This document shows, piece by piece, positions 3,017-57,313 of a DNA stretch of 64,000 nt (its first letter is position 1; each line of letters begins with the position of its first letter). The stretch spans positions 170,925-234,924 of the forward strand of contig CBCXTT010000002.1 in NCBI GenBank assembly GCA_965178295.1. The letters run 5' to 3'. The DNA comes from Alphaproteobacteria bacterium (GTDB lineage: Bacteria > Pseudomonadota > Alphaproteobacteria > UBA7879). Below the pieces are notes generated by a model. That model was not told the origin of the DNA. It saw nothing but the letters and a program-made list of their open reading frames with translations, and ran no database searches. Made by a program: the position numbers and the translations under genes.

Positions 3017-3734
3017 TAATACGCTCCTAACTGCCAGAGGTCAATCTCTGCAGAGAAAAAATGTAAAAACACATAAAAATTTTACTTGAAAATGCAATGA
3101 TTAACATCATATATAGCGCTTGTCATCGCATATGAAGAACAAATTTATTTTTGTGTATTGTTTCTGATATATAGCCTTCCTACTTGTGCATAAGTAGTGG
3201 CAGTGTCATATGAAAATGAAGACAAGACTGTATGCAACCAGTGTCCCTGCGCTCTATAAAGTTCGACTCTAAGAAAATAAGCTCGCACAGAGGACGGGCC
3301 CACGGGAGCACACAGTACGATAGCAACGAGGAATTGGCATTCAAATCCCCCCAGCGCATGATATCACTCCGCTCCTATAGAACAAACACAGAGCCCATTC
3401 ACCAATTCCCGCATTCCCAGCGAATGCTCTGAATAGCATTGCTAATCTGGGGTTGGTAAAACATTCCGTATTCTACGAAAAATGAGTGAGCACACTATCC
3501 TGGTATAGATTACCTATGTCACTAAACCTAATGCACTCCTAGCAACGATTGAAAACGCCACAGAAATGGGTCATACCCCTCTTTTCAACATATATCAAAG
3601 GCACATATTTACATTTGAGACTTTTGAATCTGTGTTTGTGACTCAATATGTAGATAAAATTTTGGCACCAGAAAATTTTCTGATCACTACTGATTGCATG
3701 GGGGTTTAATTTTCCCTGTGAGGTAGGAACCGCA

Positions 3735-3759
3735 ATGTATAGTATATAATACTATACAT
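3735..3759. repeat. perfect 11-bp inverted repeat with 3-bp spacer (ATGTATAGTAT-ata-ATACTATACAT)
   Basis: Read directly from the sequence. It lies in the 1.1-kb AT-rich intergenic region between the lpdA stop and the smpB start. Confidence 0.6.
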
Positions 3760-4157
3760 GCAATGCTAGTCCAGTCCAGAAAAGTCTGAGAGCTCAGGAT
3801 TGTCTTACGTCTTGGAACCGCTTTCTGTCTCCTTTTTCCAACTTTAAGCGGGTTTCTTATATTGTAAGTGCCAGAGATTTCCTAAGATTTTATCAATTTT
3901 CTGCTTGTATCAACACGGCGTCCGCCAAACATCTTCTAAGCAGGGTGGTCCGTCTTTTGTGTTGTGCCCTGAGAATACCTGTTAATGGATCACCACAATA
4001 CAATGCAGCCCATACGAAGAAGTGCATATGTTGTTTGATTCTGTTCGGCTGCATCTCTGATTGCGCTTCTGCTCATCTAAAAACATAGCTAAAAATATAA
4101 AGCTTATGCTGCGTGTTCGACATGACGACTGGTGCTCTTCTTTATCAATAGCTATTT

Positions 4158-5572
4158 TTAAAAATGAATCGGTTGCGAAAAAGCGCCCAACGCTGCTTCT
4201 TTTAATGCCTCATTTGTTGTTGGATGTGGATGGCAGGTGCGTACAATATCTTCACTAGACGCTTCATATTCCGTGCCCAAAACAAATTCTGTAATAAGGG
4301 TTCCAGCGTTCGCACCAACAATATGTGCGCCCAAGATCCTATTTGTCTTTGCATGGGTCAAAATTTTAACAAAACCTTCCGTTAATCCGGTTGTTTTTGC
4401 ACGCGTATTTGCTCTGAACGGAAATTTCCCTACAATATAGGGTACATTTTCTTTCATCAGCCCTTGCTCTGTTTTCCCAACTGTTGCCACTTCAGGCATG
4501 GTATAAATCACACTAGGAATTGCCGCATAATTTACATGAGGGTTCTGCCCTGCCAAGTGCTCCATTAACGCAACGCCCTCTGCTTCTGCTCTATGTGCCA
4601 GCATAGGCCCAGGCACAACATCACCAATCGCATAAATCCCCATCATACTTGTGGTGTAATGTTCACCTACTTCAATACAGCCACGTGCGTTACATTTGAC
4701 ACCAACATTTTCAAGTCCAAAACCCTCTTTATACGGGCATCTCCCCGAAGCAACCAACGCAACATCAACATCTAGTGTGTCAGTTGACTGTCCATCTTTT
4801 GCATCCGCCAAGGATAATGAGACCCCTGTCTGATTCACCGTAGCCCCTATCACTTGTGTCCCCAGAACAAATGTCATCCCCTGAGTTTCCAAACTCTTTT
4901 TCAAAGAAACGCATACTTCTTGGTCCATCATAGACACAATCGTTTCATCAAATTCAATAATCGTTACATCTGCACCCAAACGCTGCCATACAGAACCTAA
5001 CTCTAGACCAATATACCCGCCACCAATGACAGCCATTTTTTGAGGAACTTCAGGTAACGATAAAGCCCCCGTCGACGACACTATACGCTTTTCATCAACG
5101 GCAACATCGGGAATACCAGCATTTTCAGCCCCCGTTGCAATCACAATGTTTCTCGATTCAATCGTATATTTTTTTCACCATGTCTCACAGTGATTTGATT
5201 AGGTGCCACAATTTCTGCATGACCCTGCATAAGGTGTACGTTATTTTTCTTCAATAAAAAGGAAATCCCCTGTGTCAGCTCCTCTACAACCTGATCTTTA
5301 AGGGCCAGCATTTTCTTGAGATCAAGGGATACATTGCTTACAACCACACCAAATTTATCTAGATAATGGGCTTCTACATATTTTTCTGAAGCATTCAATA
5401 GGACCTTTGATGGAATACATCCTATATTTAAGCACGTCCCCCCCAGTGTTGGGCGCTTATCAACACAGGCTACCTTAAAACCAAGTTGAGCACCTTTAAT
5501 GGCTGCCGCATAACCACCGGGTCCACCGCCTATTACAACAATATCAAATTTTTCCATAGTGCAGTCCCTCAT
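4158..5572 (-). CDS. lpdA: dihydrolipoyl dehydrogenase (E3), reading frame interrupted by a single frameshift in a poly-A tract
   Basis: Two overlapping ORFs. 5141..5572 is the N-terminal FAD-binding part (DIVVIGGGPGGYAAAIKGAQLG...GGTCLNIGCIPSK). 4158..5144 is the remainder (NAD-binding and dimerisation domains). They join within GTGAAAAAAATATAC, where the coding strand has a 7-nt A run. One extra A restores ...VRHGEKKYTIESRNIVIATGAEN... Confidence 0.85.
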
Positions 5573-12790: not shown

Positions 12791-14538
12791 GTTCTGTCTT
12801 CTCTTATCTTTCCAATAATGCTATTCAGGTATTGTCAGGCGCTCCCGCCAATCCGCTAGTATGACTACCACTGCTCTCAGAGGGCTATCAATTTCATTAA
12901 CAGGTAGTTTCTGGCTTATATCATACAAATACTCGATTGCAAACAAATCTCCTATGCGCATTTTACTCACAACACATCCTGCGATGAAACGGGGTTGATC
13001 AAAAATTCCATCGAGCGGGATAATCAACACACTATCTTGTATGGCACAAGAAAAAATTTTCTCGCAGTGTCTGCGCAATTTGAGAACAATATTGATCAAT
13101 CACAATCTTCAAATTCTTCTAAATTATCAGCTAATATATTAGCATTGTCCCAAATCATGATCCGCTATAGGCGTTTATTATTGTTTGCACAGATAACACA
13201 AGATAAGGTAGCAGTGTCTTGCGCTCCAGATGCAGTATCACAATTTTATGTTAAAGCCTTGCTGCACAAGCCTGGAAGATCTCAACAGTAGCGCTCCATA
13301 AAACAACAGATTGATATTTTGTACAACACCTATTGGCCGCTCATCAGGAAAGAGAGCCATCGAGATACAGAGCGCGGCGGGTTGCTCATAGTCCATACCT
13401 CCAAGTCTGTCGTGAAAAACCGACACAACGCCCCGTACTCAGATCATTATCTTTCTTTCTTACCAAACACTGTCGCCTGCCGCTTCTAATGCATTCTCCA
13501 CAGTGCATACATGCTTTCAAGAGAACGGGAGAGTGCTGCGCGTCTTTTGCAAGATCCACAGTTTCCAAAAACACCCCATCAGTGCGGTCCGGGAACATAA
13601 AAAATGGCTAACCCAAGATCACACCATCATCTCTTGTGTACATTGCGTGCTCTTTCCATATGTTTACATAGAGCTCAAAAAAGCCTAAAAATTCTTCTTC
13701 ATCCTCAAACGTGTGCTGTTATTGCCAATAACAATCACAAATATACTGTCCGCTACAAATATCAGGGACCAGAAGAGAAGAACAGGTGCAATAATAAGGG
13801 AGTGTTTTGGGCATTAGTGGTTGTATAGGTAATAGGTGGCGCCTAACTGGACACTTTGTGTTTTATCATACAACACGAAACGTTCGTTGATCAGGGCAAT
13901 AATGATCCGCAAGGAAAAATTGCGCACCTCACTGAGATGCGCGTAGTCGCGCGCGCACATCATCACAAGCATCCAGTAAAGGCATGTTATGCACACTGCT
14001 GTCTCTCTTTAAGTACAGTACTTGAAAATTGGGTAAAACCGATGCAAACAGAAGGAAAGTTAATCTACCAGTAAAAAGATGGGTTCCGGAAGAACCAACG
14101 GGTGCATATTACGCTCCCATCTCTCGGCATGTTCACATCTCTTAGCGCAAAAGAACTGCTTGCTTTATCTGGACGTCTTTTGGAGATGGCATAGCCATAG
14201 AGTATACGGCACAGTCAATTATCTCTACACAAACCACTCTTCCTATCCATCATTTAATCAATATTGGAATCACTGCATTGCTGCTCTATAGGAATGCGCA
14301 AGAAGAGAATCCTGAATTTGTGCTTCAGTTTAGTATGCGCTATTCCCGCTTCAAGCATGTCCCGTTCTTGATAATCTGTCCGCATTTTATCATATCAAGC
14401 GCTGTTTTCATACTACTCTAATTGCCTTTCATGCAATCGGCCTCTTTCTTTTTTTAAGCAGTCATATATTTCTGTGCTTGATTTGTCTTAAGAGATTCTG
14501 CAAGCTGGAGCTAAGGGCCCAAAGAGAGAAGATGTGTA

Positions 14539-23385: not shown

Positions 23386-23832
23386 TCACCGTTTATCTTT
23401 TAGACAGAAAGAGCGATGAACATCATCTAAGGCTTGGATCGCTACTTCAATGACATTTTGTGGCTGGTAGCCACCCATTTTATCGGGCCACTCTATTAGC
23501 GATATACGTTCACTGAGTCCATCTGTATATCCTAAATCCCAAATGCCATCTGCCGATTCAAGGCGATAAAAATCAAAATGCCAGATGGGGAAATTCTCTC
23601 CTTCATATGCCTGAACCAACGTAAAAGTTGGAGAGGGCACAATCATATTACATCCACATAAGGCTTGTATTATAAAACGGGCAAAAGCTGTTTTTCCAGC
23701 CCCCAAATCTCCTGTCAATAAAACAATATCACCTACTCTCAGTGCGAGCGCCAAATGATGGGCTAAAGACCGAGTATCCTCCAGGGATTGTGCTACAATC
23801 GACTCAGAAAAAATATTAGACATTTTAGACAT
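23386..23832 (-). CDS. tsaE: tRNA threonylcarbamoyladenosine biosynthesis protein TsaE (P-loop ATPase)
   Basis: 148 aa with a GDLGAGKT P-loop. YjeE/TsaE family. First gene of the tsaE-amgK-murU-addB-addA block. Confidence 0.85.
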   Translation of the reverse strand: MSKMSNIFSESIVAQSLEDTRSLAHHLALALRVGDIVLLTGDLGAGKTAFARFIIQALCGCNMIVPSPTFTLVQAYEGENFPIWHFDFYRLESADGIWDLGYTDGLSERISLIEWPDKMGGYQPQNVIEVAIQALDDVHRSFCLKDKR

Positions 23833-24899
23833 TGTCGTTTACCGTACACCCACATGTAATGCATTCACTAAAGGCGCTGCCTATGAAAGAACATACCACA
23901 GATATTGCCATAATTGGTGCAGGACCGGTAGGGCTTTTTGCAATTTTTGCGTGTGGCATTCTAAAACTCAACTGTCATGTCATCGATACTCTGGATGAAG
24001 TTGGTGGCCAGTGTACTGCCTTGTACCCTGAAAAACCTATTTATGATATTCCTGCGTTCCCAGAAATTTTAGCGGGAGACTTAATTGATCATTTAAAACA
24101 ACAAGCAGCGCCCTTCAATCCGACATTCCACTTAGGACAACAGGTCACACATATTTCTTCAGCGAACAAGGGTTGGAAAATCACAACATCTCAAGACATT
24201 ATCATTCACACAAAGGCCATTATTATTGCTGCTGGTGTGGGCGCCTTTGGACCCAATCGTCCGCCCCTAAAAAACTTAGAGTGTTACGAAAAATAAAAGT
24301 GTGTTTTATTAATATAAAAAACAAAGAAAAACTGTCGGGAAAAAAAATTGTAATTGTGGGTGGGGGTGATTCGGCAATAGACTGGGCCTTAAGTCTGTCG
24401 GATGTTGCAGATCATTTGCACGTTGTACACCGTCGCTCCAAATTCCGCGCAGCTCCAGATAGCGTTGACAAACTACATAAACTATGCGCACAAGGAAAAA
24501 TTACACTCGAAGTGCCCTATCAACTATATTGGACTCAAGGGAGACAACGCTGGAAATATAACAGAGGTTTGCATCCAAAATTTAGACAAAAATACAAAAA
24601 CATTACAAGCAGATGTGCTGCTACCATTTTTTGGCTTGTCTACGAATCTTGGCCCTATTGCAGAATGGGGCCTCCACTTAGATAAAAAAAATATTTCTGT
24701 TGAGCCAACAACATGCGCAACATCCACACAAGGCATCTTTGCAATTGGCGATATTGCAACATATCCAAATAAATTAAAGCTGATTGTCACTGGATTTTCC
24801 GAGGCTGCATCAGCAGCGCATTCAGCAAGAGCGCATATCTATCCAGATCAGATATTTCACTTTGAATATTCTACAACGCATGGTAAGCCGGCAGCATAA
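23832..24899 (+). pseudogene. fpr: ferredoxin--NADP(+) reductase (thioredoxin-reductase-like FNR), interrupted by two frameshifts
   Basis: Three overlapping ORFs: 23832..24296 (frame 0), 24173..24685 (frame 2) and 24402..24899 (frame 0). The sensible parts concatenate to FNR-like ...IAIIGAGPVGLFA...LECYE / KIKVCFINIKNKEKLSGKKIVIVGGGDSAIDWAL...EVPYQL / IGLKGDNAGN...GIFAIGDIATYPNKLKLIVTGFSEA.... The first shift is at the GAAAAATAAAAG run near 24288-24296. The second is near CTATATTGG around 24525-24535. Likely true start MKEH at 23883. Confidence 0.8.
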
Positions 24900-24900
24900 A

Positions 24901-25803
24901 CTAAAATACAAGCTCCGACCCTTTATAGAGCACCTCATATGCTTCAGCTGTGTATGCACCGTTACGCTCGTGTACTACTAACCCTGGATCTATCTTCAGT
25001 GGTTCCTTTGCCCCCTTGCGCGCTCGCACAATAGTGCGCTTTGAGGACACACCTTTTTTTGGCCAGAGGAGAAAAATTTCTATGCCGCCAAAGTGATATT
25101 TTTTTAAAAAAAATATCACTTCATCGAGGATAGCTGTAGGATAGATTAACGTTAAATATCCACGCGTCCTTAACATCACTTGACAGAATTTTATCCACTG
25201 CTCTAGAGACACATTGACCATTGAACGTGCTATACGCCGACTGTGTGTTTTTGCATGCGTTGCATCATAAAAATAGGGGGGATTTGTAACGATCTGATCA
25301 AAGCTATCCAGTGCAGTAGGGCTATTAATATAAGAATCTGCCACATTATGCTGAAAAAAAGCAATATACAAGTCATTGTGAGTCGCATTAAGAATCGCTA
25401 TATCTAAAAGATCGTTTTGTATCTCAACACCCACAATATCTAAGCACGCCAATCTATGCTTCAATAGAAGCGCAAGAGTTCCAACACCGCACCCCAAATC
25501 AAGAATGCGGTCCATGGGATGAGCCATGACTGATGCTGCTAAAAACACCGTATCACTCCCCGCACGATACCCATCTATGGGTTGTTGCACCGTAACTTCC
25601 CCACCTAAAAAATTTGATACATCATTCATACGTCCTACTTTTTGATAGATTTTTCTGCATTTTCCCCTATGATCAGAGGGTGTTCTTACTATATCGGTAA
25701 ATACACTAAAGGAAAAGGATGTCTGCAAGGAAGTGTCTATACATAAAAACCCTGCCTGTGCTTGAAAATCTTCAGTCCATGCTCGCACAGGATTTACAAG
25801 CAA
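24901..25803 (-). CDS. class I SAM-dependent N6-adenine methyltransferase (NPPY motif), TrmN6/YfiC-like
   Basis: Contains LDLGCGVGTLALLL (SAM binding) and VTNPPYF (N6-adenine methyltransferase motif IV). Likely true start at MNDVSNFLGG, about 25629, because the upstream part overlaps the divergent ispB start. Confidence 0.7.
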   Translation of the reverse strand: MLVNPVRAWTEDFQAQAGFLCIDTSLQTSFSFSVFTDIVRTPSDHRGKCRKIYQKVGRMNDVSNFLGGEVTVQQPIDGYRAGSDTVFLAASVMAHPMDRILDLGCGVGTLALLLKHRLACLDIVGVEIQNDLLDIAILNATHNDLYIAFFQHNVADSYINSPTALDSFDQIVTNPPYFYDATHAKTHSRRIARSMVNVSLEQWIKFCQVMLRTRGYLTLIYPTAILDEVIFFLKKYHFGGIEIFLLWPKKGVSSKRTIVRARKGAKEPLKIDPGLVVHERNGAYTAEAYEVLYKGSELVF

Positions 25804-26733
25804 TGGATGTCCTCATGCAACATCAAATGGATGCACGCGCACCACTTATAGGCACAATTACGGGCAGACTTATCCAAAGCGGGGGAAAGCGCCTTCGCCC
25901 TATGCTGACAATGGCGGCTGCGCATCACTATCAATACAAAGGAACACGGCATATCTCTCTTGCTGCATGTATCGAATTTATTCATACTGCTACTTTATTG
26001 CATGATGATGTTGTGGACGATAGCCAGAAGCGTCGTGGTCAAAAAACCGCAAACATCATATGGGGAAACAAACCGCCCATTCTCGTTGGAGATTTCTTGT
26101 TTTACACAAGCCTTTGGGCTCATTATCCAAGATGGAGACCGAGATATTCTACGTGTTCTTTCTAACGCCTCAACACGTATTACAGAGGGGGAAATCCTCC
26201 AACTTACAGCGGATGAGTTCGCAACAAAAGAAGATAACTATTGGGCAATTATTTCTTCAAAAAACAGGCGGCTTTATTTGAATCTGCTCTTCATGTGGGA
26301 GCGATTATTGGTGGTGCTAAGAAAGAGGAACAACAAGCTTTTAGTACATATGGTCATCATTTGGGGTGTATTTTTCAACTTTCAGATGATTTTCTAGACT
26401 ATTTTGGAACAAAAAATTCCCTAGGGAAAAATGCAGGGGATGATTTTTACGAAGGCAAGATTACACTTCCAGCGTTGCTAGCATATAAGGCTGGAACCGA
26501 TGATGAAAAGAGCTTCTGGACCAGAATTTTTGGAAAAACGCATGTACGCACAGCGCTTGATTTTACCCGCGCGCGGATCCCTCATGATCAAGCATCATGT
26601 GCCCGAGAAAATGCATCACAACATCACCGAGATCGCTCAAAAAGCACTGCAAGCGATTGTTGCTCTAGAGCCATCTCCCTATAAAGAAATCCTCATCCAT
26701 CTCCCAACTTATTGTAGAAACAGGAGTGCCTAG
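25719..26733 (+). pseudogene. ispB: octaprenyl/all-trans-polyprenyl diphosphate synthase, fragmented by at least three frameshifts
   Basis: Four overlapping ORFs in frames 0/1/0/1: 25719..26165, 25960..26397, 26241..26684 and 26500..26733. The pieces read ...GGKRLRPMLT...LLHDDVVDDSQKRRG (first DDxxD), ...GDFLF / TQAFGLIIQDGDRDILRVLSNAS...ISSK / AALFESALHVGAIIGG...FQLSDDFLDY (second DDxxD)... / ...KHHVPEK...[14 protein letters not shown]. Shift 1 is at TTGTTTT near 26100. Shift 2 is at the A6 run near 26255. Shift 3 is near the GCGCGCGG run around 26575. Likely start MLAQ at 25779. Confidence 0.8.
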
Positions 26734-28805
26734 CCTTCTAGCGCACCAAAAATCAAGCACTTGGTGAAACAAAGACCGCACACGCCCCAAGAGATGTAAG
26801 CGTGTCTGCGCAACTTTTATATCATCAACTATCACGACACTTTCATCTAAAAAGCGATTAATACACACACTGATCTGCACGAGTTTAGAGAGCTGTCCAG
26901 AAAGTGTGCATGCCATATAAACAGGTCCAGAGAGTTGCACGGCTAAATCTTTTTCGGCACTGTCACGCAATGCATTATCGCACATACCCGTACCATCAAA
27001 ACACACATTCTGCTTTTTTTCTATCTGGTTCAAGATATTAGAAACCCGTTTGTATGCTGTCAACACACCCACGCCTTCTGCGGTTTCAAAGAATTTTTTA
27101 GCACAGAAAGTGCGTTGGTCATAACATAAAAGTCCACCATTTCTGAGTGATTTAATACACTCAATATATGGTCATAACGGTAGCCTTTATCTTTCATATA
27201 CACATGAAAACGATCTTGTAAAAATTTCCACAGAAACGCTAACGTCTTAGCCTTCTCTTGTTTTCCAGGCACATTAAGCTGATCATAGGCAAAATTCATG
27301 GTTTGCTTTATATCAAGAGACCATTTATTCTCAATCAGCAAACGTAGACACCCTAAGGCCGAACGACGCAAGGCAAAAGGATCTTTAGAACTAGTAGGCA
27401 TGATCCCAACACTGAAAAATGCAATCAACGTATCCAATTTATCGGCAAGCGCCAACACCCGGCTTGACGGTGCGTTTGGACAAACATCGCTCGGTCCTTT
27501 AGGAAAATAATGTTCGCGAATTGCAAGAGCCACATTGTCAGATTTCCCCTGTGCAATTGCATAATAGCATCCTGTGATACCTTGCAATTCTGGAAACTCT
27601 CCAACCATGGCCGTTGCAAGATCTGCCTTGCATAAACGAGCGGCTTCTTCCGCATCTTCAAGTTCTGGAGCTATATTTTGAACCAGCCTTTCCAAGCGCG
27701 TGACCTTTTCTAGCATCGTTCCTAACTGAGCATGAAAGGCTTGTTGTTCTAAACATGCACTCCAAGTGTCAAGGGTGCGCTTTTGATCTTGCTTCCAAAA
27801 AAATGAGGCGTCGGCAAGGCGTGCGGTAAGTGTTTTTTCATTTCCCCGGATAATTTGTTCCCCGCCATCCAGCGCTACCATATTAGAGACGAAGAAAAAA
27901 TAGGGTGCAAGTCGGCCATTCTTTTTTGTTGCAAAACACTTTTGATGTGTCCGCATACTCGTCACCAGAATCTCAGCTGGAAAAGACAAGTATTCTTGTG
28001 AAAAATGCCCCCTGAATATCACGGGCCACTCAACTAGCCCTACCACCTCTTCCAACAATTGTTCATCAAGAACAACGTCAAGATTTGCAGACGCCGCATG
28101 CGCTTCCAACTGGATCCTCACATCATTCCGACGTGCATCTTGATCAATTATCACATATGCAGAGGCGAGTTGTGTTTTATAGGCGTCAAAAGTCCGTACG
28201 GCAAAGGATTTTGGTGCCAGAAAACGATGCCCCATTGTTATATCACCCACAGTAACATGGGGATGCGGCGCATCAAGTGGAATGATTTCTCCATCAAAAA
28301 CAGCCAGCAGTGATTTCAGAGGGCGTACCCATTTAAAACTCGACGCCCCCCAGCGCATGGATTTAGGCCACTTAAAAGAGCGCATCAACCCAAACAATAC
28401 CTCTGAGAGCAAAGCGCTAGTAGCAATACCACCCTGGACACTGGGAGCGAAAAAAAATGTCCCCTTTTTTGGAAGCTCTCGCGTCTTTAGGTCATCCATG
28501 GTCAGGGCCGTTGACGATAAAAAACCCTGAATCGCTGCATCAGATGCCTTAACACTTGGTCCTTTGAGTTCTATATATTTCTTGGGCTGCATTGTTGGCA
28601 AACCTACAACATGTGCAATGAGCCGCCGCGGCGTCGTATAAATATTCATGCCATCATACGGTAGATTATATGAATCCAAAGCCGAGACAAGCCTTTCTTT
28701 AAGCTGAGCCCTTGCTCCAGGTTGCATACGTGCGGGCATTTCCTCAGACAATATCTCCATAAAAAACTCAGCCATCTCGATCCTCGTGATCCTTCCAAAG
28801 CGCAC
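26665..28805 (-). CDS. glyS: glycine--tRNA ligase beta subunit, interrupted by one frameshift near an A6 run
   Basis: ORF 27060..28805 (581 aa, GlyS N-terminal and central regions) plus ORF 26665..27072 (135 aa, C-terminal [11 protein letters not shown]... region). They overlap by 13 nt. The join lies at or next to GTGCTAAAAAATTC (27090-27098 on the + strand). Likely true start [14 protein letters not shown] at 28775, forming an ATGGCTGA overlap with the glyQ stop. Confidence 0.88.
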
Positions 28806-32386: not shown

Positions 32387-33505
32387 TCAAGGTACACAAT
32401 AAACAGCCGAAGAAGGAATATAGCGATGACAAATAGCCTCTGCAAAACCCTTTTCCTGCAGCCTCAAAAGACTATGGTTTATTTTCTCTTTATACGGACT
32501 CCCCTTTGGCAAGGAAAAAGAGACTTCGTCAATCGCAAGCCGTATATCAGAGACTTTAAGGGCGAAATTTTTATGCTCTTGCACTTCTTGCGCAAGAGAT
32601 ACGTAGTCATCGATTACAACATCCACCTCCTGAGTGTGAAGCGCCTCTATAGCCGCATCTAATGTTTCGTAAGAGATCACTTTTGCAGTTGATCGCTTCG
32701 CTATTACAGCATTCTCTGAACCCCGTACAACCCCCGAGACCATATCCTGTAAATCCTCAATGTTTGAAATTGTCTGATTATTGTAGCTATACAAGGTAGA
32801 AGATAAAGCACTTGTAATCATACCAAAAAAACCCGATACAAAAACGAGTGATACAATAAGCCAAAAAGCCATAAAAACTCGCGCTTGGGGCCCTTCTGGT
32901 CTGTATAAAACTTTGATTTGAATAAGGCGCGCAAACATAAACCACATACTGTCGCCAATACCTCGAAAATACCTTGTGCTGATTTCAGGAGCATGCCATC
33001 TGTAAAAAAACCAATACACATGCGCAGCAACAATAAAGAAAATAGCAATAATAAAGAAACCGACCTCACCCAATTTTTTCATAAATATGTGTAATGCATC
33101 TAAAAAACCTAAATGAATCTCATGAAACGCCACACCTATTTGCTCAATAAAAAAAGGGCGCGTAAAGTCCAAGCGTGACAGCCTATCTCGTGTAGCAGAA
33201 ACAGGGCCAAGAACGAGATCAATGTGACCGTTTTCAAGAGACTCCAGAGCTGAGGAAATATTAGAACCAAGAGATGTAAGGGTATAGGACAATTGATTGT
33301 CCTGCGCAATTTCGTCCCATATGTCAATTGCAAATCCAGAGGGAATGTCTGAAGAAAGAAAAGAAAACGGTTTATGGTCAACGTATCCAACACGCACATC
33401 AATAGCACACAGAAAAGTGGGCCAGAGAAAAATAATGATAAATCGCTTGATCACGTTATTATGCCTCCCTTCTTTCATTTGATCTTCCTTAAAAAAATCT
33501 GTCAA
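32387..33505 (-). CDS. ionotropic glutamate receptor-like ligand-gated channel (GluR0-type: periplasmic SBP lobe 1 - M1 - pore loop - M2 - SBP lobe 2)
   Basis: 372 aa. Signal/TM segment first, then an SBP_bac_3-like lobe (VRVGYVDHKPFSF...GHIDLVLGPVSATRDRLSRLDFTRPF). Next comes TM VGFFIIAIFFIVAAHVYWFF, then a pore-helix-like FRGIGDSMWFMFARLIQ (compare iGluR SLWFSLGAFMQQG), then TM VFMAFWLIVSLVFVSGFFGMITSALSS (compare iGluR M3 ...ISSYTANLAAFLT). A second SBP lobe follows (…VDVVIDDYVSLAQEV...SFSLPKGSPYKEKINHSLLRLQEKG). No TVGYG K+ filter and no M4. Probable true start at MKEGRHNN. Confidence 0.7.
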   Translation of the reverse strand: MTDFFKEDQMKEGRHNNVIKRFIIIFLWPTFLCAIDVRVGYVDHKPFSFLSSDIPSGFAIDIWDEIAQDNQLSYTLTSLGSNISSALESLENGHIDLVLGPVSATRDRLSRLDFTRPFFIEQIGVAFHEIHLGFLDALHIFMKKLGEVGFFIIAIFFIVAAHVYWFFYRWHAPEISTRYFRGIGDSMWFMFARLIQIKVLYRPEGPQARVFMAFWLIVSLVFVSGFFGMITSALSSTLYSYNNQTISNIEDLQDMVSGVVRGSENAVIAKRSTAKVISYETLDAAIEALHTQEVDVVIDDYVSLAQEVQEHKNFALKVSDIRLAIDEVSFSLPKGSPYKEKINHSLLRLQEKGFAEAICHRYIPSSAVYCVP

Positions 33506-33587: not shown

Positions 33588-35531
33588 ATGATACGCCTTG
33601 CATACCTCATTCTGTTTTATTTCATAGCATGCGCATACAGCACAAGGGCGGAGGACATACCAAGTACATGCATTCAAGCGCTGAAACACACACTGAACAA
33701 CACACACATGCCTCAAAAAATTCCTAAAAATTGTAAGATTGTTGGCGATTTTCTTGCCTGGTATCAATATCAAGAAACTACAAAACATAATGATTTTGAT
33801 AAAATTATGTTTTTTATTCATACACATCCATCTTGGCCCAAGATAAAGGTGTTGCAACAGCGAGCCGAAGAAAGTATCGCCAGCACAACTTCTTCTAGCA
33901 CAATTATTCGCTGGTTCATGCAGTATACACCAATTACAAGTGTCGGCAACATCCACTATGCACATGCATTGCTACAATCTGGAAAAGAAGTGGAAGCAGT
34001 AATACAAATTAAACACGCCTGGCGCAAGCAACAGATGACACAAAAACAACAGAAATTCTTCTACCAGAAATATAAGAAGTACTTAAATACGAAAGATTTA
34101 ATGCATCGGCTTGAAACACTTGGATGGAGCAGCAATAGCAAAGGCATATATGGCCTTAAAAGCTACCTAAGTGCAGAGATTCAAAATTTAGCACTCGCTC
34201 TGATTGGATTAATACAGCGTGAAAGCAACATTGATATCCTCATCAAAAAAGTTCCCTCGCGATATCAACACCATCCTCTTCTACTATTTCACCGCATTAA
34301 ATGGCGCCTTAGACATAAAAAATATGATAGCGCGCTTGCATTAATGCACAAAGCAATCACAGAAAAAGCAGATACAGCGAATCCTGCTGCCTGGCTGCAA
34401 ATTCGGCGCACACTATATCGCTACTTGCTGAAAAAAAAACAGTACAAAGAGGCCTATCATATCATACAGCATCATGTAGAAAAAGACCCAAAAGCAGTGG
34501 ACTTAGAATGGTGTTCTGGCTGGATTGCCTTAAGATTTTTAGACGATCCAGAGCGTGCAAACACTCATTTTCAAAACGTCTATTATATAGCGACAACACC
34601 CATAAGCCAGGCCAAGGGATGTTACTGGGTCGCTCAAGCACAAAAAAAAATGGGAAATATTCAAGCGTATAAGGACTGGCTGAAAAGAGCGAGTAATTTT
34701 TACATTACGTTTTACGGTCAGCTAGCGCAACAAGAGCTTTACGGGAAGATTTCCATTACGCTAAAAGAAGGCATATCTGCAAAAAACTTAAATCACTTAT
34801 GGGATGAGTATATCAATCTTTTCTCTGTACTAAAAAAGTGGGAATTGAGTCGCCATATAAAACCTTTTTTACTCCACATGGCGCATGCATCAAAATCACC
34901 ACAAGATCAGGAGTTTGCAGTTAAAATGGCGGCACAATATGCGCCAGAGTTTATAGTACTCACAACAAAAGTTGCAGGACGCAAGGGTATGATCCCACTG
35001 GATATTACATTCCCAACATTAACATTACACCAGATCCCCAAAAAAATACCCGTCGATCTAGCCGTTATACATGCTGTTATTCGCCAGGAGAGCGGATTTG
35101 ATCAATATGGAACCAGTCCTGCCGGTGCACAGGGTTTGATGCAACTGATGCCAGAAGTCGCCAAAAATGTTGCACAAAGATGGAAGATACCCTTTACAAA
35201 AGGCTGTCTCCATAACGCTTCACATATGAATGTACAGATTGGAAGCACCCACATGGCGGACTTACTCAAGACTTTTGAAGGGGATATTATTCTCTCCCTT
35301 GCAAGCTATAATGCCGGTCTTAGTAATGTGAAAAAATGGATTAAACACTATGGAGATCCACGAAAAAATGTGCATATATTGGATTGGATTGAAACAATCC
35401 CCTTCAAAGAAACGCGTTCATACATATATCGCGTTTTAGAATCTGTCTCTATTTATGAAAGTATGCTTAATACGAAGAGTCCACATGGTGTTTCTTCGCT
35501 AAGAATGCCCAGCCTCGAGAAAACAACATAG
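33588..35531 (+). CDS. slt: soluble lytic murein transglycosylase (Slt family)
   Basis: 647 aa. Signal peptide, superhelical repeat region, and a C-terminal SLT catalytic domain (VIRQESGFDQYGTSPAGAQGLMQLMPEVAKNVA...ASYNAG). Confidence 0.85.
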   Translation: MIRLAYLILFYFIACAYSTRAEDIPSTCIQALKHTLNNTHMPQKIPKNCKIVGDFLAWYQYQETTKHNDFDKIMFFIHTHPSWPKIKVLQQRAEESIASTTSSSTIIRWFMQYTPITSVGNIHYAHALLQSGKEVEAVIQIKHAWRKQQMTQKQQKFFYQKYKKYLNTKDLMHRLETLGWSSNSKGIYGLKSYLSAEIQNLALALIGLIQRESNIDILIKKVPSRYQHHPLLLFHRIKWRLRHKKYDSALALMHKAITEKADTANPAAWLQIRRTLYRYLLKKKQYKEAYHIIQHHVEKDPKAVDLEWCSGWIALRFLDDPERANTHFQNVYYIATTPISQAKGCYWVAQAQKKMGNIQAYKDWLKRASNFYITFYGQLAQQELYGKISITLKEGISAKNLNHLWDEYINLFSVLKKWELSRHIKPFLLHMAHASKSPQDQEFAVKMAAQYAPEFIVLTTKVAGRKGMIPLDITFPTLTLHQIPKKIPVDLAVIHAVIRQESGFDQYGTSPAGAQGLMQLMPEVAKNVAQRWKIPFTKGCLHNASHMNVQIGSTHMADLLKTFEGDIILSLASYNAGLSNVKKWIKHYGDPRKNVHILDWIETIPFKETRSYIYRVLESVSIYESMLNTKSPHGVSSLRMPSLEKTT

Positions 35532-36729
35532 CAAATGCCCCGTTTCCAAAAACATTAAAGGCCGTATTAACCGGATCAGCCAAAATATAAAGGGTTGTAA
35601 TCAACGCCCCCATCTCTGGTGAAAACTGAAAACACTGCTCCAAAAGCGGCAGCATCACAATAATTCCACCACCTGGTACACCGGCAATTGAAAACTTAAT
35701 GAGCACAAAATACCCTGCAAATACGAGATATTCCATCAAAGTTGGCATTGTTCCACCAAAGCCAAGCATAATAGCCATTGCAAGCAAGGGGACGCCCAAG
35801 CTATCGCCCACTAGGTGAATGTTGGTCGTCATTGGAACTACTGCATCTATACTAGGATCATGCTTTGTATTGAGACGCACCCCTGAAATAGTAAGTGGTA
35901 AAGCGGCCGCACTTGACATTGTAGTACCCGCTGCCACTAACGCTGGAAACATATTGCGCACAGACGCAACAAAAGCATGAAAACGGAATTTCGATGCACC
36001 CGCATAAAGTAGAGTGGTATAAGACAGTTGCAGCAGGCAAATAAGAATTAAAACAGATCCACATTGTTGTAGCAGCGTGTCCATAAGACCTTCAGCAGAA
36101 AACTTCAAAACAAACCCAAAAATAAACACAGGAACAAGGGGCACAAAAAAACGATAGAGAAAGACATTAATCATGACTGTTGCCCCCTCTTGAAAACGCT
36201 GCAAAAACAAGCGTGGCAAATAGCCACTTAACGCACCCAAAATCAGTCCTGTAAAAAGAGCCGTGTCATTTGCCAAAAACTTCGGCAAAAAAAAGTCCCA
36301 GAGGGGCGTAGTGACTTGATTGCTAGAATCCATACAAAGCGCCAAAGGAAAGTGTGGTAAGGTCATTTGACTGACGCCATACGAAATCATCGCAGAGACA
36401 AAATTAGACCCGCAAATGCATAGCAATAAACATAGGACAAACAAAAAAATACCACCATGCATACGCGATATAGCAAGAAAAAGAAACATAAAGATCAGAA
36501 AAGGTAAAATAAAAATCAGGATTTCTTTAAGGCTCAAGCTCAGCGCAAAAAAGAAAGAAATCATACCTGACGGCATCCAGTCTACACAAACATACGCTGT
36601 GAAAAGTAGCATGATAATTTGCACTGGTAAACTTTTTAAATGAAAAAAAATTCGTCTAGTGGTTGTGATCATTCTCATATTCTCGCCGTTTGCGCATAGC
36701 GAGTATAACAAATATTGAGAGCCAAACAA
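35467..36729 (-). CDS. dicarboxylate/amino acid:cation symporter (DAACS; GltP/SstT-like)
   Basis: Polytopic membrane protein with DAACS signatures (MSSAAALPLTISG; AGVPGGGIIVMLPLL). The track ORF overlaps SURF1. Likely true start at MLLFTAY, about 36612. Confidence 0.75.
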   Translation of the reverse strand: MFGSQYLLYSLCANGENMRMITTTRRIFFHLKSLPVQIIMLLFTAYVCVDWMPSGMISFFFALSLSLKEILIFILPFLIFMFLFLAISRMHGGIFLFVLCLLLCICGSNFVSAMISYGVSQMTLPHFPLALCMDSSNQVTTPLWDFFLPKFLANDTALFTGLILGALSGYLPRLFLQRFQEGATVMINVFLYRFFVPLVPVFIFGFVLKFSAEGLMDTLLQQCGSVLILICLLQLSYTTLLYAGASKFRFHAFVASVRNMFPALVAAGTTMSSAAALPLTISGVRLNTKHDPSIDAVVPMTTNIHLVGDSLGVPLLAMAIMLGFGGTMPTLMEYLVFAGYFVLIKFSIAGVPGGGIIVMLPLLEQCFQFSPEMGALITTLYILADPVNTAFNVFGNGAFAMLFSRGWAFLAKKHHVDSSY

Positions 36730-41071: not shown

Positions 41072-42597
41072 ACCTCCTTAACGCTTCATAAAAAGTTGCA
41101 TGAAGCTTTTCTCAAAAACATATTTCAAAATAGGAGTTAGTATAGACAGAAACTTCTTACTTTGCAAATTCTGCCTCCTCAGCGTTTCTTATTGGTTAAT
41201 TTTGATGTAAAAAATGGTTGCTAATTTATTCACAAGTACTATATTATATAGAAATATTGAATATATGAAAAATATGTTTGGAAACACCCCGAAATCACCC
41301 TCCTATTGTTACACAAAGCTGATGGGAGATTGGGATTATGCAGCAGCTATGCTCGCTGTTATTACGATTTCTGCTCTTTGGAAGCTCAATCCCACATTGA
41401 CTATCTGCGCTCAGTTATGGATCAAAGCCGTGCGACAGTGTGAGTGCACGAACAATACCTCAACATCAACAAAATGGATATTGTCCAGGCACAAATCCTC
41501 TCCAACAGTCAAATGATAAGCGTAGTAAAAATGACAGAAGTGGTGGCATAGAGGAAGATATGGGATCAGTATGGGGCACATATTGTAAGAAAACTGCGTC
41601 TCTCCGAGGGCTGCACAAGCGATGGAAGCACTACGTTGAGCAGGAGACGTCATCTCACAGAGAGATCAGATGACGGGATTACCATTTTCTACAACATTGA
41701 TGATACAATGCCTAGGATTTCTCACCCTTCTTGAGAGTATAGGGTGCGCGTCTACCCAAACACTTCCAAAAGTACGCATCCAAACCCGCTACAGGGTGTG
41801 TAGTATCCACAAATTTGTGCTATTGAGCGCTCTCATATACGTCATACACGCATCCTCCCCCCTACACAAGAAATTCCATGCGGCATAGAGAGCTAAAAAA
41901 TGTAGCGGTTTGAGGTCATCTGTCGGGAAAACATGACTCTGGTACGCCCAACATGCTACTCTAGATAGAGGTCCAAAAATTCCAACAACAGTCAGACTAC
42001 ATATGCGTCATATGCGATTATCTCTTCATCCCACCCCGCACTTATACAGGTATACCACGAAGCCGATCCCAGAGAAAATTGGCGGTTCCTCTCTTATATG
42101 GCAAGTGTGACGAAAAGTCGCCAAATCAATCAGAAGAGATAGTAATATATAAAATATACAGTAATAAAAATCATAACTGCTTTCTTGGGAGATCCATTGG
42201 AGAAGATGCATATCCGGCCTACTCTTCAGTGCTGCACAAAAAGGTGACAATTAGTGGTGTAGAAAAAATGATAAAAGAAACGCTAGTACACATTCTAGCC
42301 TCAATGCGTGATACGACTAGAGGGGTAAAATACACTACTAAAAATCTTGTCTTTTTTTATCACTATTGTTCTGAACACGAGTATTAGTTAAGTTGCACTC
42401 TACGCGCTCTCCCTTCCTCTCACATCTCTTTTAACCCTGCAACAGAGTTCAGAATCTGAGACTCTTTCAGCTTCTAACGCTGATGATACTTTGGTAATCC
42501 TGAAGCAAGAGAAGCTCTGCATTAATTAATATAAAATAGTGTTTCTTCCGTGCCACTTTGAAGAAAAAGAACAGACAAGAAACCAGCGAAAAAACAT

Positions 42598-42651
42598 TAC
42601 TATGCAAGATAGCGCAACTATGCAAGATAGCGCAACTATGCAAGATAGCGC
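42598..42651. repeat. 18-bp tandem repeat x3 (ACTATGCAAGATAGCGCA), in-frame within a small ORF (MQDSAT x3)
   Basis: Three perfect 18-bp units at 42598-42651, then a degenerate fourth (CAAATACAAGATTGT). Confidence 0.9.
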
Positions 42652-42763
42652 ACAAATACAAGATTGTATGAATGCTCTTGAAAATCGTGTTTTTATACTT
42701 ACACAAGCCGCCTCTAGTAATAACGGCGCTCTACGTGTGCACCAAATGTGGTCTCTGCAGTAA
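42601..42763 (+). CDS. hypothetical small protein (about 53 aa) with N-terminal MQDSAT hexapeptide repeats
   Basis: The first canonical ATG lies inside the repeat. The ORF reads MQDSATMQDSATMQDSAQIQDCMNALENRVFILTQAASSNNGALRVHQMWSLQ*. There is no obvious SD. A second mini-ORF starting ATGCAAGAT (MQDAGAARR...) lies at 44292..44420 and is followed by a hairpin plus T-run. Confidence 0.2.
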
Positions 42764-44435
42764 AAATATGCAGAAAATTAGTAGAGAAATTTCCTGACTT
42801 ATGGCTCAGGTATGAGATAGTATTCACGTGCGTCCGTTTCTGGTGTGCAAAAATTTATATCCACGGCACGTCTGAACTGTGCACTAAGAAGTGATGAGAC
42901 GAATGCGTCGTCACGCACAGCACAAAAAAGCTTCTATCGCACTGCACATGTTGGAACTTCCCTTGGACAAAGATACATAAATTTCATAGATTGATCTGTT
43001 AAAATTCTGTATATAGCGCGGCCTTAACGTTGCAATTCTGTGCTGATTACATAAAGGTGTAGATTGAATTGTCTCAGACTCATAGAAGTAGTGGAAACAC
43101 AGAGGAAATGCTCTTCAGCAGTAGAGATTCGGCCTCCAATCCTGACCTAGAGATGCGGATAAGAGATCCTTCCAACGTTCGAGGGCGGCTGATGTGCTCT
43201 ATGCATAGGTATACACAGCACACTCACAATCAAAAAGATTAGCCATTAGGCATGAGGAATGCAGCATGCACAGTGAGCGTCAGGGGCAATCTGTGTGAAC
43301 ACTGCAGCAACTTCCAGAGGTGTGATCGAAAATCAGTTGGGATTGCCAGAAATGGCTGGTCACATAAAGCATCGAATCAAAAACATGACATCAAACATAG
43401 TACAAAAGACAATATACGCAATATATCCATTACTCTCTATAATCACAGTGTCAATACTGCATTGCAAATACGAGCTTGATAAGACTGTGGACAATAATAG
43501 TGCCATGCAATAGCGTGGAAAGTGCAAAAAGTAGAGATATAGAAAAAAGCATCATCATATCAAAAGGAGCTCTAGATATGAGTGATTATAGCATTAATCT
43601 TTCTGGACAAATCGTTTAGGTGAATATGCAACTAACACTCATGTATAAAGCGCACGCAATAATAGGCGTACACAGCACTGAGTAATAAATATATTCCCTG
43701 TCAGGCAATCAGGGTAGAAATATTTTTGTCCACGTCACACAGGTGAGAGTCTACATCCAAGCGTCGTAGAGTTACCATAAGGACCTGGATTACTATCGTC
43801 CAAAAAAGTCTTTTTACTGCACACAGAGCACAGGGGTTTTTCAGATTTTGTTACACAGTGTTTCACACTAAATTACTACAGAATAGCAACTGCTGTACAA
43901 GTGGAAAACACCACACAAAGTTGTCCGATTTTGGTCAGCAGTCTTCATATCGATAACCGTTGCGGCGATATTGACTATGATGGAATATTTAGATGCTCAT
44001 TAGATCCAAAAAATTCCTGAAATTACACTATCCGGAGCAGATAGTGGATCAATCTATGGGCACTGAGATAGAGTGCACTCTTATTATAAACGCAGGTTTG
44101 AGTGCACCGACAACAGGGGGGTGGAAGAAGGAACCATCAAGCTTAAACAATTTAAATTCCAAAAATCACATCTTCTCAATTGCAAGTAGCGGTTAGTTCT
44201 CGAACATACTGCATGGTATTTCCATAGCATGGTATTGCGTACAATATTGCGTATATTGCATAGTGATTTCACCTTTAACAGAATAAATGCCATGCAAGAT
44301 GCAGGAGCCGCGCGCAGAATGCATCCACTGAATCCGTCTCAAGATAATGGAGCGATACAGAAGAAGGCACATAAGATAAGAATTGACGATGCACAACATC
44401 CTGAAGTTAGTACATCATAAAACACAACCCCCCCT

Positions 44436-44460
44436 CTCTCTACGCTGAGAGTACTTTTTC
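44436..44460 (+). terminator. putative rho-independent terminator (CTCTC-tacgct-GAGAG + TACTTTTTC) on + strand
   Basis: Hairpin directly followed by a T-run on the + strand. It overlaps the gltX stop on the opposite strand. It sits 16 nt after the stop of the + strand mini-ORF 44292..44420. Confidence 0.3.
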
Positions 44461-45783
44461 AAAACGAGACTGAATATTTTGTCGACCCATAAGTTGTAAA
44501 ATCTTTTGCAACTCTGGGCCATGTGCAGCACCTGTCAAGACACGGCGCAAGGGCATAAAAAATTCTTTTCCCGTGCAGGTACTCTCTTCTTTAAATGTCT
44601 GAAACCAGTCCGCCATATCATCACCCTTCCACTGAGCGATATGCTCACAAGCAGCTCGAATAAACGCAATATCTTCTTGTTCCATATTAAGCGCTACTTC
44701 TCCATAGCATATATCCCACCACAAAGATACGTCCTGAAAATTTGTAAGATTCGTCCGTACATTAGTCCAAAAATTCTCTGTAATATTACGACCTTCGGGA
44801 AAATATTTTTTTACCTCTGAGAATGGCATGTTGCGCAATACTTGAGCATTGAGCGTCTTAAGCACTGGCCACGAAAACTTGGGGGTCGCGCGTGCGAACT
44901 TTCTAAAACTAAACTCCTTAATTAAAGGTGCCATATCTGTAAAAGGCGTAAGAGGATCAGACGTTCCCAATCGCGCTAATACATCGCATAATGCTTCAGC
45001 CGTAACACCAGCATCTTGTAATGCGCCTACACTCAGGCTACCCAATCGTTTAGAAAGGCCATCACCTTGTGCATCGGTCACTAAGGTCAAATGTGCAAAT
45101 GAAAAATCTTTAGGTCTGCAGCCCAGAGCATCTATGAGCTGAATCTGTATTGCTGTATTTGCAACGTGATCCTCACCGCGCACAATATGAGTAATCTGCA
45201 TATCTATATCATCTACAACTGATGCCAGTGTATATATCGGGCTTCCATCAGAGCGCACTAACACAGGATCGCTTAAATGCGCTCCATTAAACTGTACTGC
45301 ACCACGCACCAGGTCATGCCATTCAATCGGTTTTTCTTCAAGCTTGAAGCGCCAATGCGGCTCCCTCCCTTCCGCTTCAAATGCTTTGCGAGCCTCAGCA
45401 TCCAGTTGCAATGCCGCCCGATCATACAGCGGTGGCTTACCCTGGTCTAATTTTTGTTTGCGCTTGAAGGCGAGTTCTTCCGGTGTTTCATAACACGGAT
45501 AGAGCCGCCCAATAGATTGTAAATATGCTACTTGAGCCGCGTATCTCTCTAATCTTTTAGATTGCTGCGCCTCTTCATCAATGGTAATCCCCAGCCAGGC
45601 TAAATCCGCATAGATTCTATCCACATATACAGTTTCATTCCGCACTGTGTCCGTATCATCAAAGCGTAAAAGAAATGTGCCGCCTTCATGTTGGGCAAAA
45701 AGCCAGTTTATAAGGGCAGTCCTCAAGTTTCCTACATGCAAATACCCTGTAGGGCTTGGGGCAAAACGCACTTTAACAGTCAT
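44440..45783 (-). CDS. gltX: glutamate--tRNA ligase
   Basis: 447 aa. Class I HIGH motif RFAPSPTGYLHVGNLRTAL and the KMSK-equivalent region. Typical non-discriminating/discriminating GluRS length. Confidence 0.95.
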   Translation of the reverse strand: MTVKVRFAPSPTGYLHVGNLRTALINWLFAQHEGGTFLLRFDDTDTVRNETVYVDRIYADLAWLGITIDEEAQQSKRLERYAAQVAYLQSIGRLYPCYETPEELAFKRKQKLDQGKPPLYDRAALQLDAEARKAFEAEGREPHWRFKLEEKPIEWHDLVRGAVQFNGAHLSDPVLVRSDGSPIYTLASVVDDIDMQITHIVRGEDHVANTAIQIQLIDALGCRPKDFSFAHLTLVTDAQGDGLSKRLGSLSVGALQDAGVTAEALCDVLARLGTSDPLTPFTDMAPLIKEFSFRKFARATPKFSWPVLKTLNAQVLRNMPFSEVKKYFPEGRNITENFWTNVRTNLTNFQDVSLWWDICYGEVALNMEQEDIAFIRAACEHIAQWKGDDMADWFQTFKEESTCTGKEFFMPLRRVLTGAAHGPELQKILQLMGRQNIQSRFEKVLSA

Positions 45784-46262
45784 ACATCCTCAGTATTTAA
45801 ACCACCCATATGGCATAACAATTTCCAGGCCTCTGTGTCAATAGGCATCACAGAAAGGCGCGACTGGCGCACCAAAGCAATATCCTTCAAGTCTGGAGCG
45901 GCTTTTATAGACGCCAAGGTAACAGGCTGCGGCATCGGGACAATCGGCTCAACAGCTACTAGACAAAATTTAGGCTCTATTGGGTCTGGATAAGCCTCAC
46001 GCACAATCTTCAGCACCCCCACAATGCGCTTGTCACTCAAAGAGTGATAAAAAAAAGCTTGGTCCCCCACCGTCATTTTCCGCATATTTCCCTGAGCCTG
46101 GTAATTGCGCACACCATCCCATTCACCAACGCCTTCCTTAACTTGATCCGACCACGACCAACGCCTCGGTTCCGATTTCAATAACCAATAATACAATATA
46201 CAGTACATCTCCGATAATGCATCCAAAGAATATCGGAGATTTGCCTCTATAGCAATATTCAC
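45780..46262 (-). CDS. EVE (PUA-like) domain protein
   Basis: YWLLKSEPRRWSWSDQVKEGVGEWDGVRNYQAQGNMRKMTVGDQAFFYHS is the EVE-domain signature. Likely start MYCILYYW at about 46205. Confidence 0.75.
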   Translation of the reverse strand: MNIAIEANLRYSLDALSEMYCILYYWLLKSEPRRWSWSDQVKEGVGEWDGVRNYQAQGNMRKMTVGDQAFFYHSLSDKRIVGVLKIVREAYPDPIEPKFCLVAVEPIVPMPQPVTLASIKAAPDLKDIALVRQSRLSVMPIDTEAWKLLCHMGGLNTEDV

Positions 46263-56377: not shown

Positions 56378-57313
56378 TTACATACGATTTTTAAAAGAGA
56401 GCGCATAATCATATAGGTCTTTCTTACGCATTGCTGTCAAAGGTAGGAGCGCAGCAACACATTGTTTTATAGGCGTGTGTGGAAGCAGTAAAGAGAATAT
56501 TGCGTCTAAATTTTTTTCTGTTAAATTTTTTGCTGTATGTCTGTGTTCTTGTGGTGGCCCAATAACAAGGACACATTCTCCCTTCTGCGTTAGAGTATTA
56601 TGATCAAAATCTTTTAAGCTTGTCCGGTGTATTGCTTCAAACTTTTTTGTAAGTTCTCGGGCGATTGCAAGAGGGCGATTGCCTAAAATAGCGTATGCGT
56701 CTTCTATAACGTCCGGTAAGCGATGATGTGTTTCATACAAAATTAGAGCGCCTGGTATGTGACGCAACGCATCAAAAATTTTCTGTCGCACACCAGATTT
56801 TTTAGGTAAAAATCCTGAGAAATAAAAACTATTAGCTTCGATTCCTGACAGTATATACGCTGTAATGCATGCACTAGAACCTGGTATAGCTGTTACAGGT
56901 ATGTGATGAGCGTAGCACTCTTGAACTAATTTCCCCCCCGGATCAGAAATGAGAGGGGTACCTGCATCACTTACAAGCGCAATTTTCCTCCCGTCCTGTA
57001 AGCGCTCTAAAATTTTTGGTCGTACCTTTTGTGCATTATGGTCATGATAAGATGTGCGCTTGGTTTGCAAACCATATGCTGTAGAAAGTTTGGCCGTTTC
57101 GCGGGTGTCTTCACACAATAATTCATCCACGTTATGCAAAACATGTAGGGCGCGCAAACTTATGTCTGCCAAATTCCCAATGGGGGTTGCCACGAGATAG
57201 AGCCCTGGTGTTATATGAGTCTTGTGACAAAACGATATTTGATCGAGGAGGTCTAATGAAAGTTTTTTGTTCCCGGAAGGCATGGATGGTTCTCCTGGTA
57301 GCATGGTGTGCAA
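56378..57313 (-). CDS. rsmI: 16S rRNA (cytidine1402-2'-O)-methyltransferase
   Basis: LYLVATPIGNLADISLRALHVL N-terminus and the tetrapyrrole-methylase fold characteristic of RsmI. Confidence 0.9.
   Translation of the reverse strand: MHTMLPGEPSMPSGNKKLSLDLLDQISFCHKTHITPGLYLVATPIGNLADISLRALHVLHNVDELLCEDTRETAKLSTAYGLQTKRTSYHDHNAQKVRPKILERLQDGRKIALVSDAGTPLISDPGGKLVQECYAHHIPVTAIPGSSACITAYILSGIEANSFYFSGFLPKKSGVRQKIFDALRHIPGALILYETHHRLPDVIEDAYAILGNRPLAIARELTKKFEAIHRTSLKDFDHNTLTQKGECVLVIGPPQEHRHTAKNLTEKNLDAIFSLLLPHTPIKQCVAALLPLTAMRKKDLYDYALSFKNRM

Follow-up and report, generated by a model that had tools for sequence, protein, structure and literature searches.

Nine clustered single-base indels in fpr, ispB and glyS of a deep-branching alphaproteobacterium are probably local consensus errors

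A 64,000-nucleotide stretch from a deep-branching alphaproteobacterium of GTDB lineage UBA7879 (assembly GCA_965178295.1, contig CBCXTT010000002.1, positions 170,925 to 234,924), called the window here, contains three adjacent protein-coding genes whose reading frames are broken. These are fpr, encoding a TrxR-type ferredoxin-NADP+ reductase, ispB, encoding octaprenyl-diphosphate synthase, and glyS, encoding the glycine-tRNA ligase beta subunit; an intact methyltransferase gene lies between fpr and ispB. Consecutive segments of the NCBIfam profiles for fpr, ispB and glyS were found on open reading frames (ORFs) in different frames between 23.8 and 27.1 kb. Alignment of this DNA with proteins of syntenic relatives located nine single-base indels, three in fpr, four in ispB and two in glyS, all within 24294-27099. 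Eight of them are insertions and one is a deletion.

The relatives were obtained by a protein search with a provisional Fpr reconstruction, which returned P0001 at 77% identity, all remaining matches being at 67% or below. P0001 is encoded on an 18.3-kb contig (L081) having a gene order identical to that of the window: addA, addB, murU, amgK, tsaE, fpr, methyltransferase, ispB, glyS, glyQ and OPT. All of its genes are uninterrupted, including those for Fpr (336 aa), IspB (342 aa) and GlyS (680 aa). A second relative (L083), found via the methyltransferase, carries glyQ-glyS-ispB-methyltransferase-fpr and also has no interrupted gene, glyQ and fpr being truncated by the contig ends. The order addAB-murU-amgK-tsaE-fpr-methyltransferase-ispB-glyS-glyQ-OPT, as the block common to the window and both relatives, is the ancestral one. 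A comparison with the syntenic regions of the nearest relatives had been proposed when the frameshifts were first noticed, and it showed that the order is the same, that the genes are intact and that no indel is shared. Relatives with Fpr identity above approximately 65% comprise only three contigs, L081 (SRR29340332), L082 (SRR24908305) and L083 (SRR17244156), which are raw-read assemblies of public runs. Their lineage is absent from the species-representative genome set and from the JGI metagenomes, which indicates that it is very sparsely sampled. A GlyS scan of 185,579 species genomes (genome_contigs) gave a best match of 44-46% identity and nothing above 46%, and scans of the JGI metagenomes using the methyltransferase and AmgK as queries found no relatives. 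In the collections searched, the organism itself is represented by a single assembly, with no sister strain.

For mapping the indels, the proteins of the syntenic relatives were aligned to the window DNA by dynamic programming that allowed one-base frame changes. The fpr gene (23883..24899, plus strand) passes through frames 3, 1, 2 and 3 and encodes 338 aa once three single bases are removed. The first indel, at about 24294 (24289..24294), is one extra base in 'gAAAAATaaaag', either A4 expanded to A5 or the T. When it is corrected, the following 15 nt encode the family consensus KSVFY (Y in 120 of 120 homologs and S in 104 of 120). The second is one extra base in 'taTTAAtat' (24309..24312), 16 nt past the first, and the third is one extra base in the non-homopolymeric 'ctaTATTgga' (24527..24530), after which the original frame is restored. 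Two A8 runs within the same gene (24340-24347 and 24684-24691) are read correctly. The corrected Fpr shares 78% identity with P0001 over its full length without stops, and its GGGDSAIDWAL motif is intact. Of the 72 residues invariant across 120 homologs it keeps 71, the sole exception being a change of M to I, and in the out-of-frame segment it keeps every one of the 20 columns that are conserved in at least 97% of homologs.

The ispB gene (25719..26733, plus strand) runs through frames 3, 1, 2, 3 and 1 and gives a 337-aa protein once four single bases are removed, in which the motifs DDVVDD and DDFLD are intact. The first of its indels is an extra T (T3 to T4) in 'ttgTTTTaca' at 26100..26103, a site on which seven different reference proteins agree. 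The second is an extra A in an A6 run (26259..26264), the correction of which restores the invariant SKTAALF motif, and the third is an extra G in 'acaGGcgg' (26267..26268), 7 nt past the second. The fourth is one extra base in 'cGGATCCCtc' (26575..26581), for which the exact base is ambiguous. On ORF boundaries and distant references alone, single one-base deletions would be placed at the A run 24289-24293 in fpr and at 26259-26264 in ispB; these were replaced by insertion pairs after closer references and the scores of profile hidden Markov models (HMMs) were considered. Two close insertions mimic a single -1 shift when only ORF boundaries are judged. The HMMs for this comparison were built without the nearest relative, and they favored the pairs because the intervening stretches encode KSVFY and the K-T-A of SKTAALF, the latter invariant in nine of nine homologs. 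The three-insertion model of fpr exceeded the one-deletion model by 12.7 bits, and the two-insertion model of ispB exceeded its counterpart by 8 bits.

The glyS gene (26730..28775, minus strand) encodes 681 aa after correction. One base is missing in a T6 run of the plus strand or in the adjacent AA (27090..27099), resulting in ORFs of 581 aa and 135 aa. At the 3' end, one extra base in an A5 run of the plus strand (26748..26752) masks the true C-terminus and adds a false tail of 28 aa; the corrected C-terminus reads ...DFGALEG*, in line with the consensus ...DF..(L/I)EG* of the relatives. After correction, the convergent ispB and glyS have stop codons that overlap at 26730-26733, and a tail-to-tail overlap of a few bases is kept in L081 (11886-11889). 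The gene for the partner subunit, glyQ, adjoins glyS and is intact, with 83% identity to its L081 counterpart.

The gene between fpr and ispB (24904..25629, minus strand) encodes a TrmN-like methyltransferase and lies intact in the middle of the cluster. Its product is full-length and colinear with the L081 protein at 53.5% identity, without a shift or a stop. The deposited call for this gene (P0121, 24901-25803, minus strand, 295 aa) exceeds the 242-aa proteins of both relatives by approximately 53 N-terminal residues and reaches into the start of ispB, so that its start is probably over-extended.

The sequence-only reading of this stretch had described six frameshifts in 3.3 kb, distributed as two, three and one over fpr, ispB and glyS. 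The clustering was borne out, but the frameshift-aware alignment raised the count to nine in 2.8 kb and changed the distribution to three, four and two. The same alignment with the same reference detected no shift in tsaE, amgK, murU, glyQ, OPT, addB and addA (seven genes, 10.9 kb), nor in the methyltransferase or the first 1.7 kb of glyS. The clustering is non-random: all nine events fall inside 2.8 kb of the 15.6 kb assessed with one reference (p = 8e-6). The only frameshift outside the cluster was found in lpdA, encoding dihydrolipoyl dehydrogenase (4158-5572, minus strand), where one base is missing in a T7 run at 5169-5175 (A8 to A7 on the coding strand). This gene, located downstream of the intact sucA-sucB, is split into ORFs of 143 aa and 328 aa, which match profile positions 1-127 and 137-461. 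The other sizeable genes of the window are full length as judged by family-profile coverage, lpdA excepted; these approximately 35 kb of further coding sequence contain one event. Counted over all the coding sequence of the window (about 50 kb), nine of ten events lie inside 2.8 kb (p about 1e-8). The earlier statement that the long genes are clean also holds, since addA, addB and OPT were aligned without a shift, and the family profiles of sucA, valS, typA, atpA and atpD are covered over their whole length.

Homopolymer density does not account for the cluster. A/T runs of at least 5 bases are 1.6 times denser inside it than outside, and runs of at least 7 bases 2.4 times; the window contains 62 A/T runs of at least 7 bases, nearly all of which are read in frame. 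On these figures the sequence-only reading was right that a uniform homopolymer-error model cannot yield such a distribution. Its implication that the indels are mostly homopolymeric was inaccurate. Most insertions occurred in runs of 1-5 bases, and each of the extra bases may be taken as a copy of one beside it. The ratio of insertions to deletions is 8:1 (p = 0.04). All nine events fall into two patches, 24.29-24.53 kb and 26.10-27.10 kb (largest-gap test, p = 0.025), between which lies a clean stretch of 1.57 kb comprising the 3' end of fpr, the whole methyltransferase gene and the first 0.4 kb of ispB.

The corrected Fpr, IspB and GlyS are all full length, have no internal stops and share 57-78% identity with the nearest relative along their whole length. 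Further neutral lesions in fpr, ispB and glyS, such as stops, larger deletions or lost invariant residues, were searched for and none was found. With proteins only 50-80% identical, synonymous sites are saturated and unsuited to dN/dS. A relative-rate comparison counted the changes specific to the window against those specific to L081 at columns conserved in outgroups. Window-to-L081 ratios were 7:2 for Fpr, 8:5 for IspB and 4:3 for the C-terminal domain of GlyS, compared with 24:13 for residues 1-559 of GlyS, 5:8 for the methyltransferase and 6:5 for GlyQ as unbroken controls. The pooled ratios, 19:10 for the broken and 35:26 for the intact sequences, did not differ (Fisher p = 0.50, with moderate power), and most changes were conservative. 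This comparison was used in place of counts at conserved GlyS columns against a Rhodobacterales-heavy locus set, which proved misleading as the whole lineage is divergent and the mismatches of another sequence in the set come close in number (28 vs 31). On these results, the correct frames were kept under purifying selection practically up to the present. If substitutions outnumber indels by approximately 10:1, as in mutation-accumulation work, nine real indels would bring dozens of substitutions, and such an excess was not seen; at a ratio of 5:1, the substitution-excess test is only borderline.

Taken together, these observations suggest that the nine indels are local consensus errors of low coverage or low quality rather than mutations in the organism, to which we assign a probability of about 0.78. 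A low-quality or low-coverage segment was one of the three explanations offered by the sequence-only reading, and it is the one that fits the evidence best. The contig between approximately 24.3 and 27.1 kb would have been called from too few or too poor reads, the two patches described above being the bad ones. Surplus base calls, for the most part repeats of the adjoining base, would have been left in the assembly, and gene callers would consequently see fpr, ispB and glyS as fragments. Such a technical cause is favored because nine events hit three adjacent genes and none hit the flanking ones, because of the 8:1 insertion bias, the insertion pairs only 7 and 16 nt apart and the mostly short-run contexts, and because normally indispensable functions are affected that both relatives keep in an intact block. 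A locally under-covered or low-quality consensus would be expected to produce all of these features, and natural mutation none of them. Both glyS, which adjoins an intact glyQ, and ispB are normally indispensable; ispB serves synthesis of the ubiquinone side chain, and the genome carries the cytochrome oxidase genes ctaE and SURF1. Outside the cluster, the broken lpdA similarly accompanies an intact sucAB. Spontaneous bacterial indels lean to deletions and to long runs, and it is low-coverage long-read or pyrosequencing consensus that leaves scattered extra bases. The lpdA event and the T6 deletion in glyS look like the ordinary genome-wide under-calling of homopolymers, from which the eight insertions seem to stand apart as a local problem of their own. 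A frameshift that homology confirms but relatives do not share is usually taken as a probable sequencing error (PMC3711429), and gene-fragmenting indels are a known defect of assemblies from long or error-prone reads (PMC12007338). The present case resembles the indel errors of draft and long-read assemblies described with Kastor (PMC12007338) and the 'singleton' frameshifts of GeneTack (PMC3711429) in that single-base indels split conserved genes, the corrected ORFs are full length, the indels are unshared with orthologues and some fall in homopolymers. It is unlike them in that nine indels are localized in 2.8 kb and are mostly insertions in short runs; this strong localization points to a local dip in coverage or quality rather than a genome-wide systematic error.

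Several points weigh against a consensus error. The technical cause is inferred from the sequence. The methyltransferase gene in mid-cluster is clean, an outcome with a probability of 0.07 (zero events) under uniform errors across the span, so that a consensus error needs the assumption of two separate bad patches. The power of the substitution tests is limited, and real indels of very recent origin would look alike. Furthermore, the long spacers without recognizable genes suggest a history of gene loss, which raises the prior for real pseudogenes.

In an alternative reading, the indels are genuine and arose very recently: fpr, ispB and the C-terminal part of glyS would just have been lost after relaxed selection or a population bottleneck in an organism that would probably be host-associated and show other signs of erosion. 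We regard this as unlikely, though not negligible. The ORF-poor spacers of 1.1-3.4 kb, without a Pfam match in the frames tested, and the break in lpdA are in its favor, and three of the ten events lie in A/T runs of at least 6 bases, a mutational hot spot known in such genomes (PMC3017870). The young pseudogenes of host-restricted Blochmannia (PMC3017870) indeed offer frameshifted housekeeping genes, an AT-leaning genome and long gene-free spacers for comparison, but the present genes differ from them in showing no relaxed constraint, stops or deletions, in their adjacent clustering, in the dominance of insertions and in the intactness of the relatives. For three adjacent genes to take nine independent hits while their neighbors took none, a local insertion-specific hypermutation would be needed, and no such process is known in bacteria. 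Recent loss also accords poorly with the absence of a substitution excess, stops and larger deletions, with an insertion bias contrary to the usual deletion bias, with the indispensable roles of glyS and ispB beside an intact glyQ, and with the retention of all the genes by both relatives, which means that the loss is not shared. The sequence-only reading had likewise offered a locally hypermutable or recently relaxed region; this is not supported, as the corrected proteins keep nearly all invariant residues, show no rate difference and have intact counterparts in both relatives. Its third proposal, that the segment is a decaying second copy from a duplicated or transferred block with intact copies elsewhere in the genome, is scarcely to be expected. 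Nothing positive was found for it within the 64-kb window, which contains neither a second copy of fpr, ispB or glyS nor flanking repeats around the segment. The block stands in the gene order of L081 and L083, and at a window G+C of approximately 43% the fpr-glyS region shows no break in composition, its GC content and skew being those of its surroundings. The intact methyltransferase inside the block, the intact glyQ beside it and the lack of excess substitutions likewise argue against a decaying copy.

Real frameshifts could also be bypassed in expression by +1 ribosomal frameshifting or transcriptional slippage, so that functional protein would still be made. Eight of the nine events need the same direction of correction (+1), perfect P-site re-pairing is possible at TTT_T (26100-26103), AAA_A (26259-26264) and, on the minus strand, TTT_T (26748-26752), and endosymbionts provide documented cases in which slippage rescues indels (PMC5009743, PMC3017870). 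Programmed +1 frameshifting and transcriptional realignment, as in prfB, dnaX and insertion sequence (IS) transposases (PMC5009743), are alike in that a frame change is needed for the full-length product, but the present sites lack both a slippery-plus-stop motif and a long A/T run, each gene has several shifts, and the shifts are absent from orthologues. The nine sites have no motif in common, and their runs of 1-6 bases fall short of the A/T runs above 7-8 that are tied to transcriptional realignment (PMC3711429). The orthologues of L081 and L083 are uninterrupted at all nine sites, leaving no conserved shift site, and a gene that needs three or four low-efficiency events in succession would yield almost no product. 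Such a bypass is therefore barely credible. That the indels are genuine in the broader sense, with a bacterium able to tolerate or correct several +1 frameshifts in its essential genes, or one that has a localized insertion-specific mutational hot spot spanning fpr to glyS, is in our view highly improbable.

Elsewhere in the window, overlapping minus-strand ORFs at 35.4-41.1 kb were considered as further split genes and rejected, as they represent separate intact genes for SURF1, CtaE, a peptide-binding protein and an MFS transporter. The adjoining 3.4 kb (41077-44440) contain no ORF above approximately 140 codons, no Pfam match in six frames and nothing at Rfam gathering thresholds, and could represent either a gene region that eroded completely long ago or non-coding DNA. 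Inside this gene-free spacer, an 18-nt unit (ACTATGCAAGATAGCGCA) is present in approximately 3.7 tandem copies at 42599-42664. Two other ORF-poor segments are located at 3040-4158 (1.1 kb), without a Pfam match in six frames, and at 12821-14515 (1.7 kb), without one in the plus-strand frames. On the minus strand, 32387-33505 encodes a GlnH-like amino-acid-binding protein, whose two lobes (profile positions 35-113 and 115-242) are parted by approximately 110 extra residues (protein residues 125-237). The ORFs at 35467-36729 (minus strand, 420 aa), 45780-46262 (minus strand, 160 aa) and 57187-58362 (plus strand, 391 aa) had no NCBIfam match at the thresholds used.

Were the indels real, it would be unusual for essential genes to carry such a nine-hit, insertion-only cluster. 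As a probable consensus defect, the cluster is ordinary, and its main bearing is on the annotation of a rarely sampled lineage, for which public data offer only two distant relatives. The corrected coordinates let Fpr, IspB and GlyS be rebuilt. From the sequence as deposited, annotation pipelines will report fpr, ispB, glyS and probably lpdA as pseudogenes, which makes three or four false calls. Such calls could distort metabolic reconstruction and claims of genome reduction, and they would wrongly suggest that ubiquinone synthesis and glycyl-tRNA charging have been lost in this sparsely sampled alphaproteobacterial lineage.

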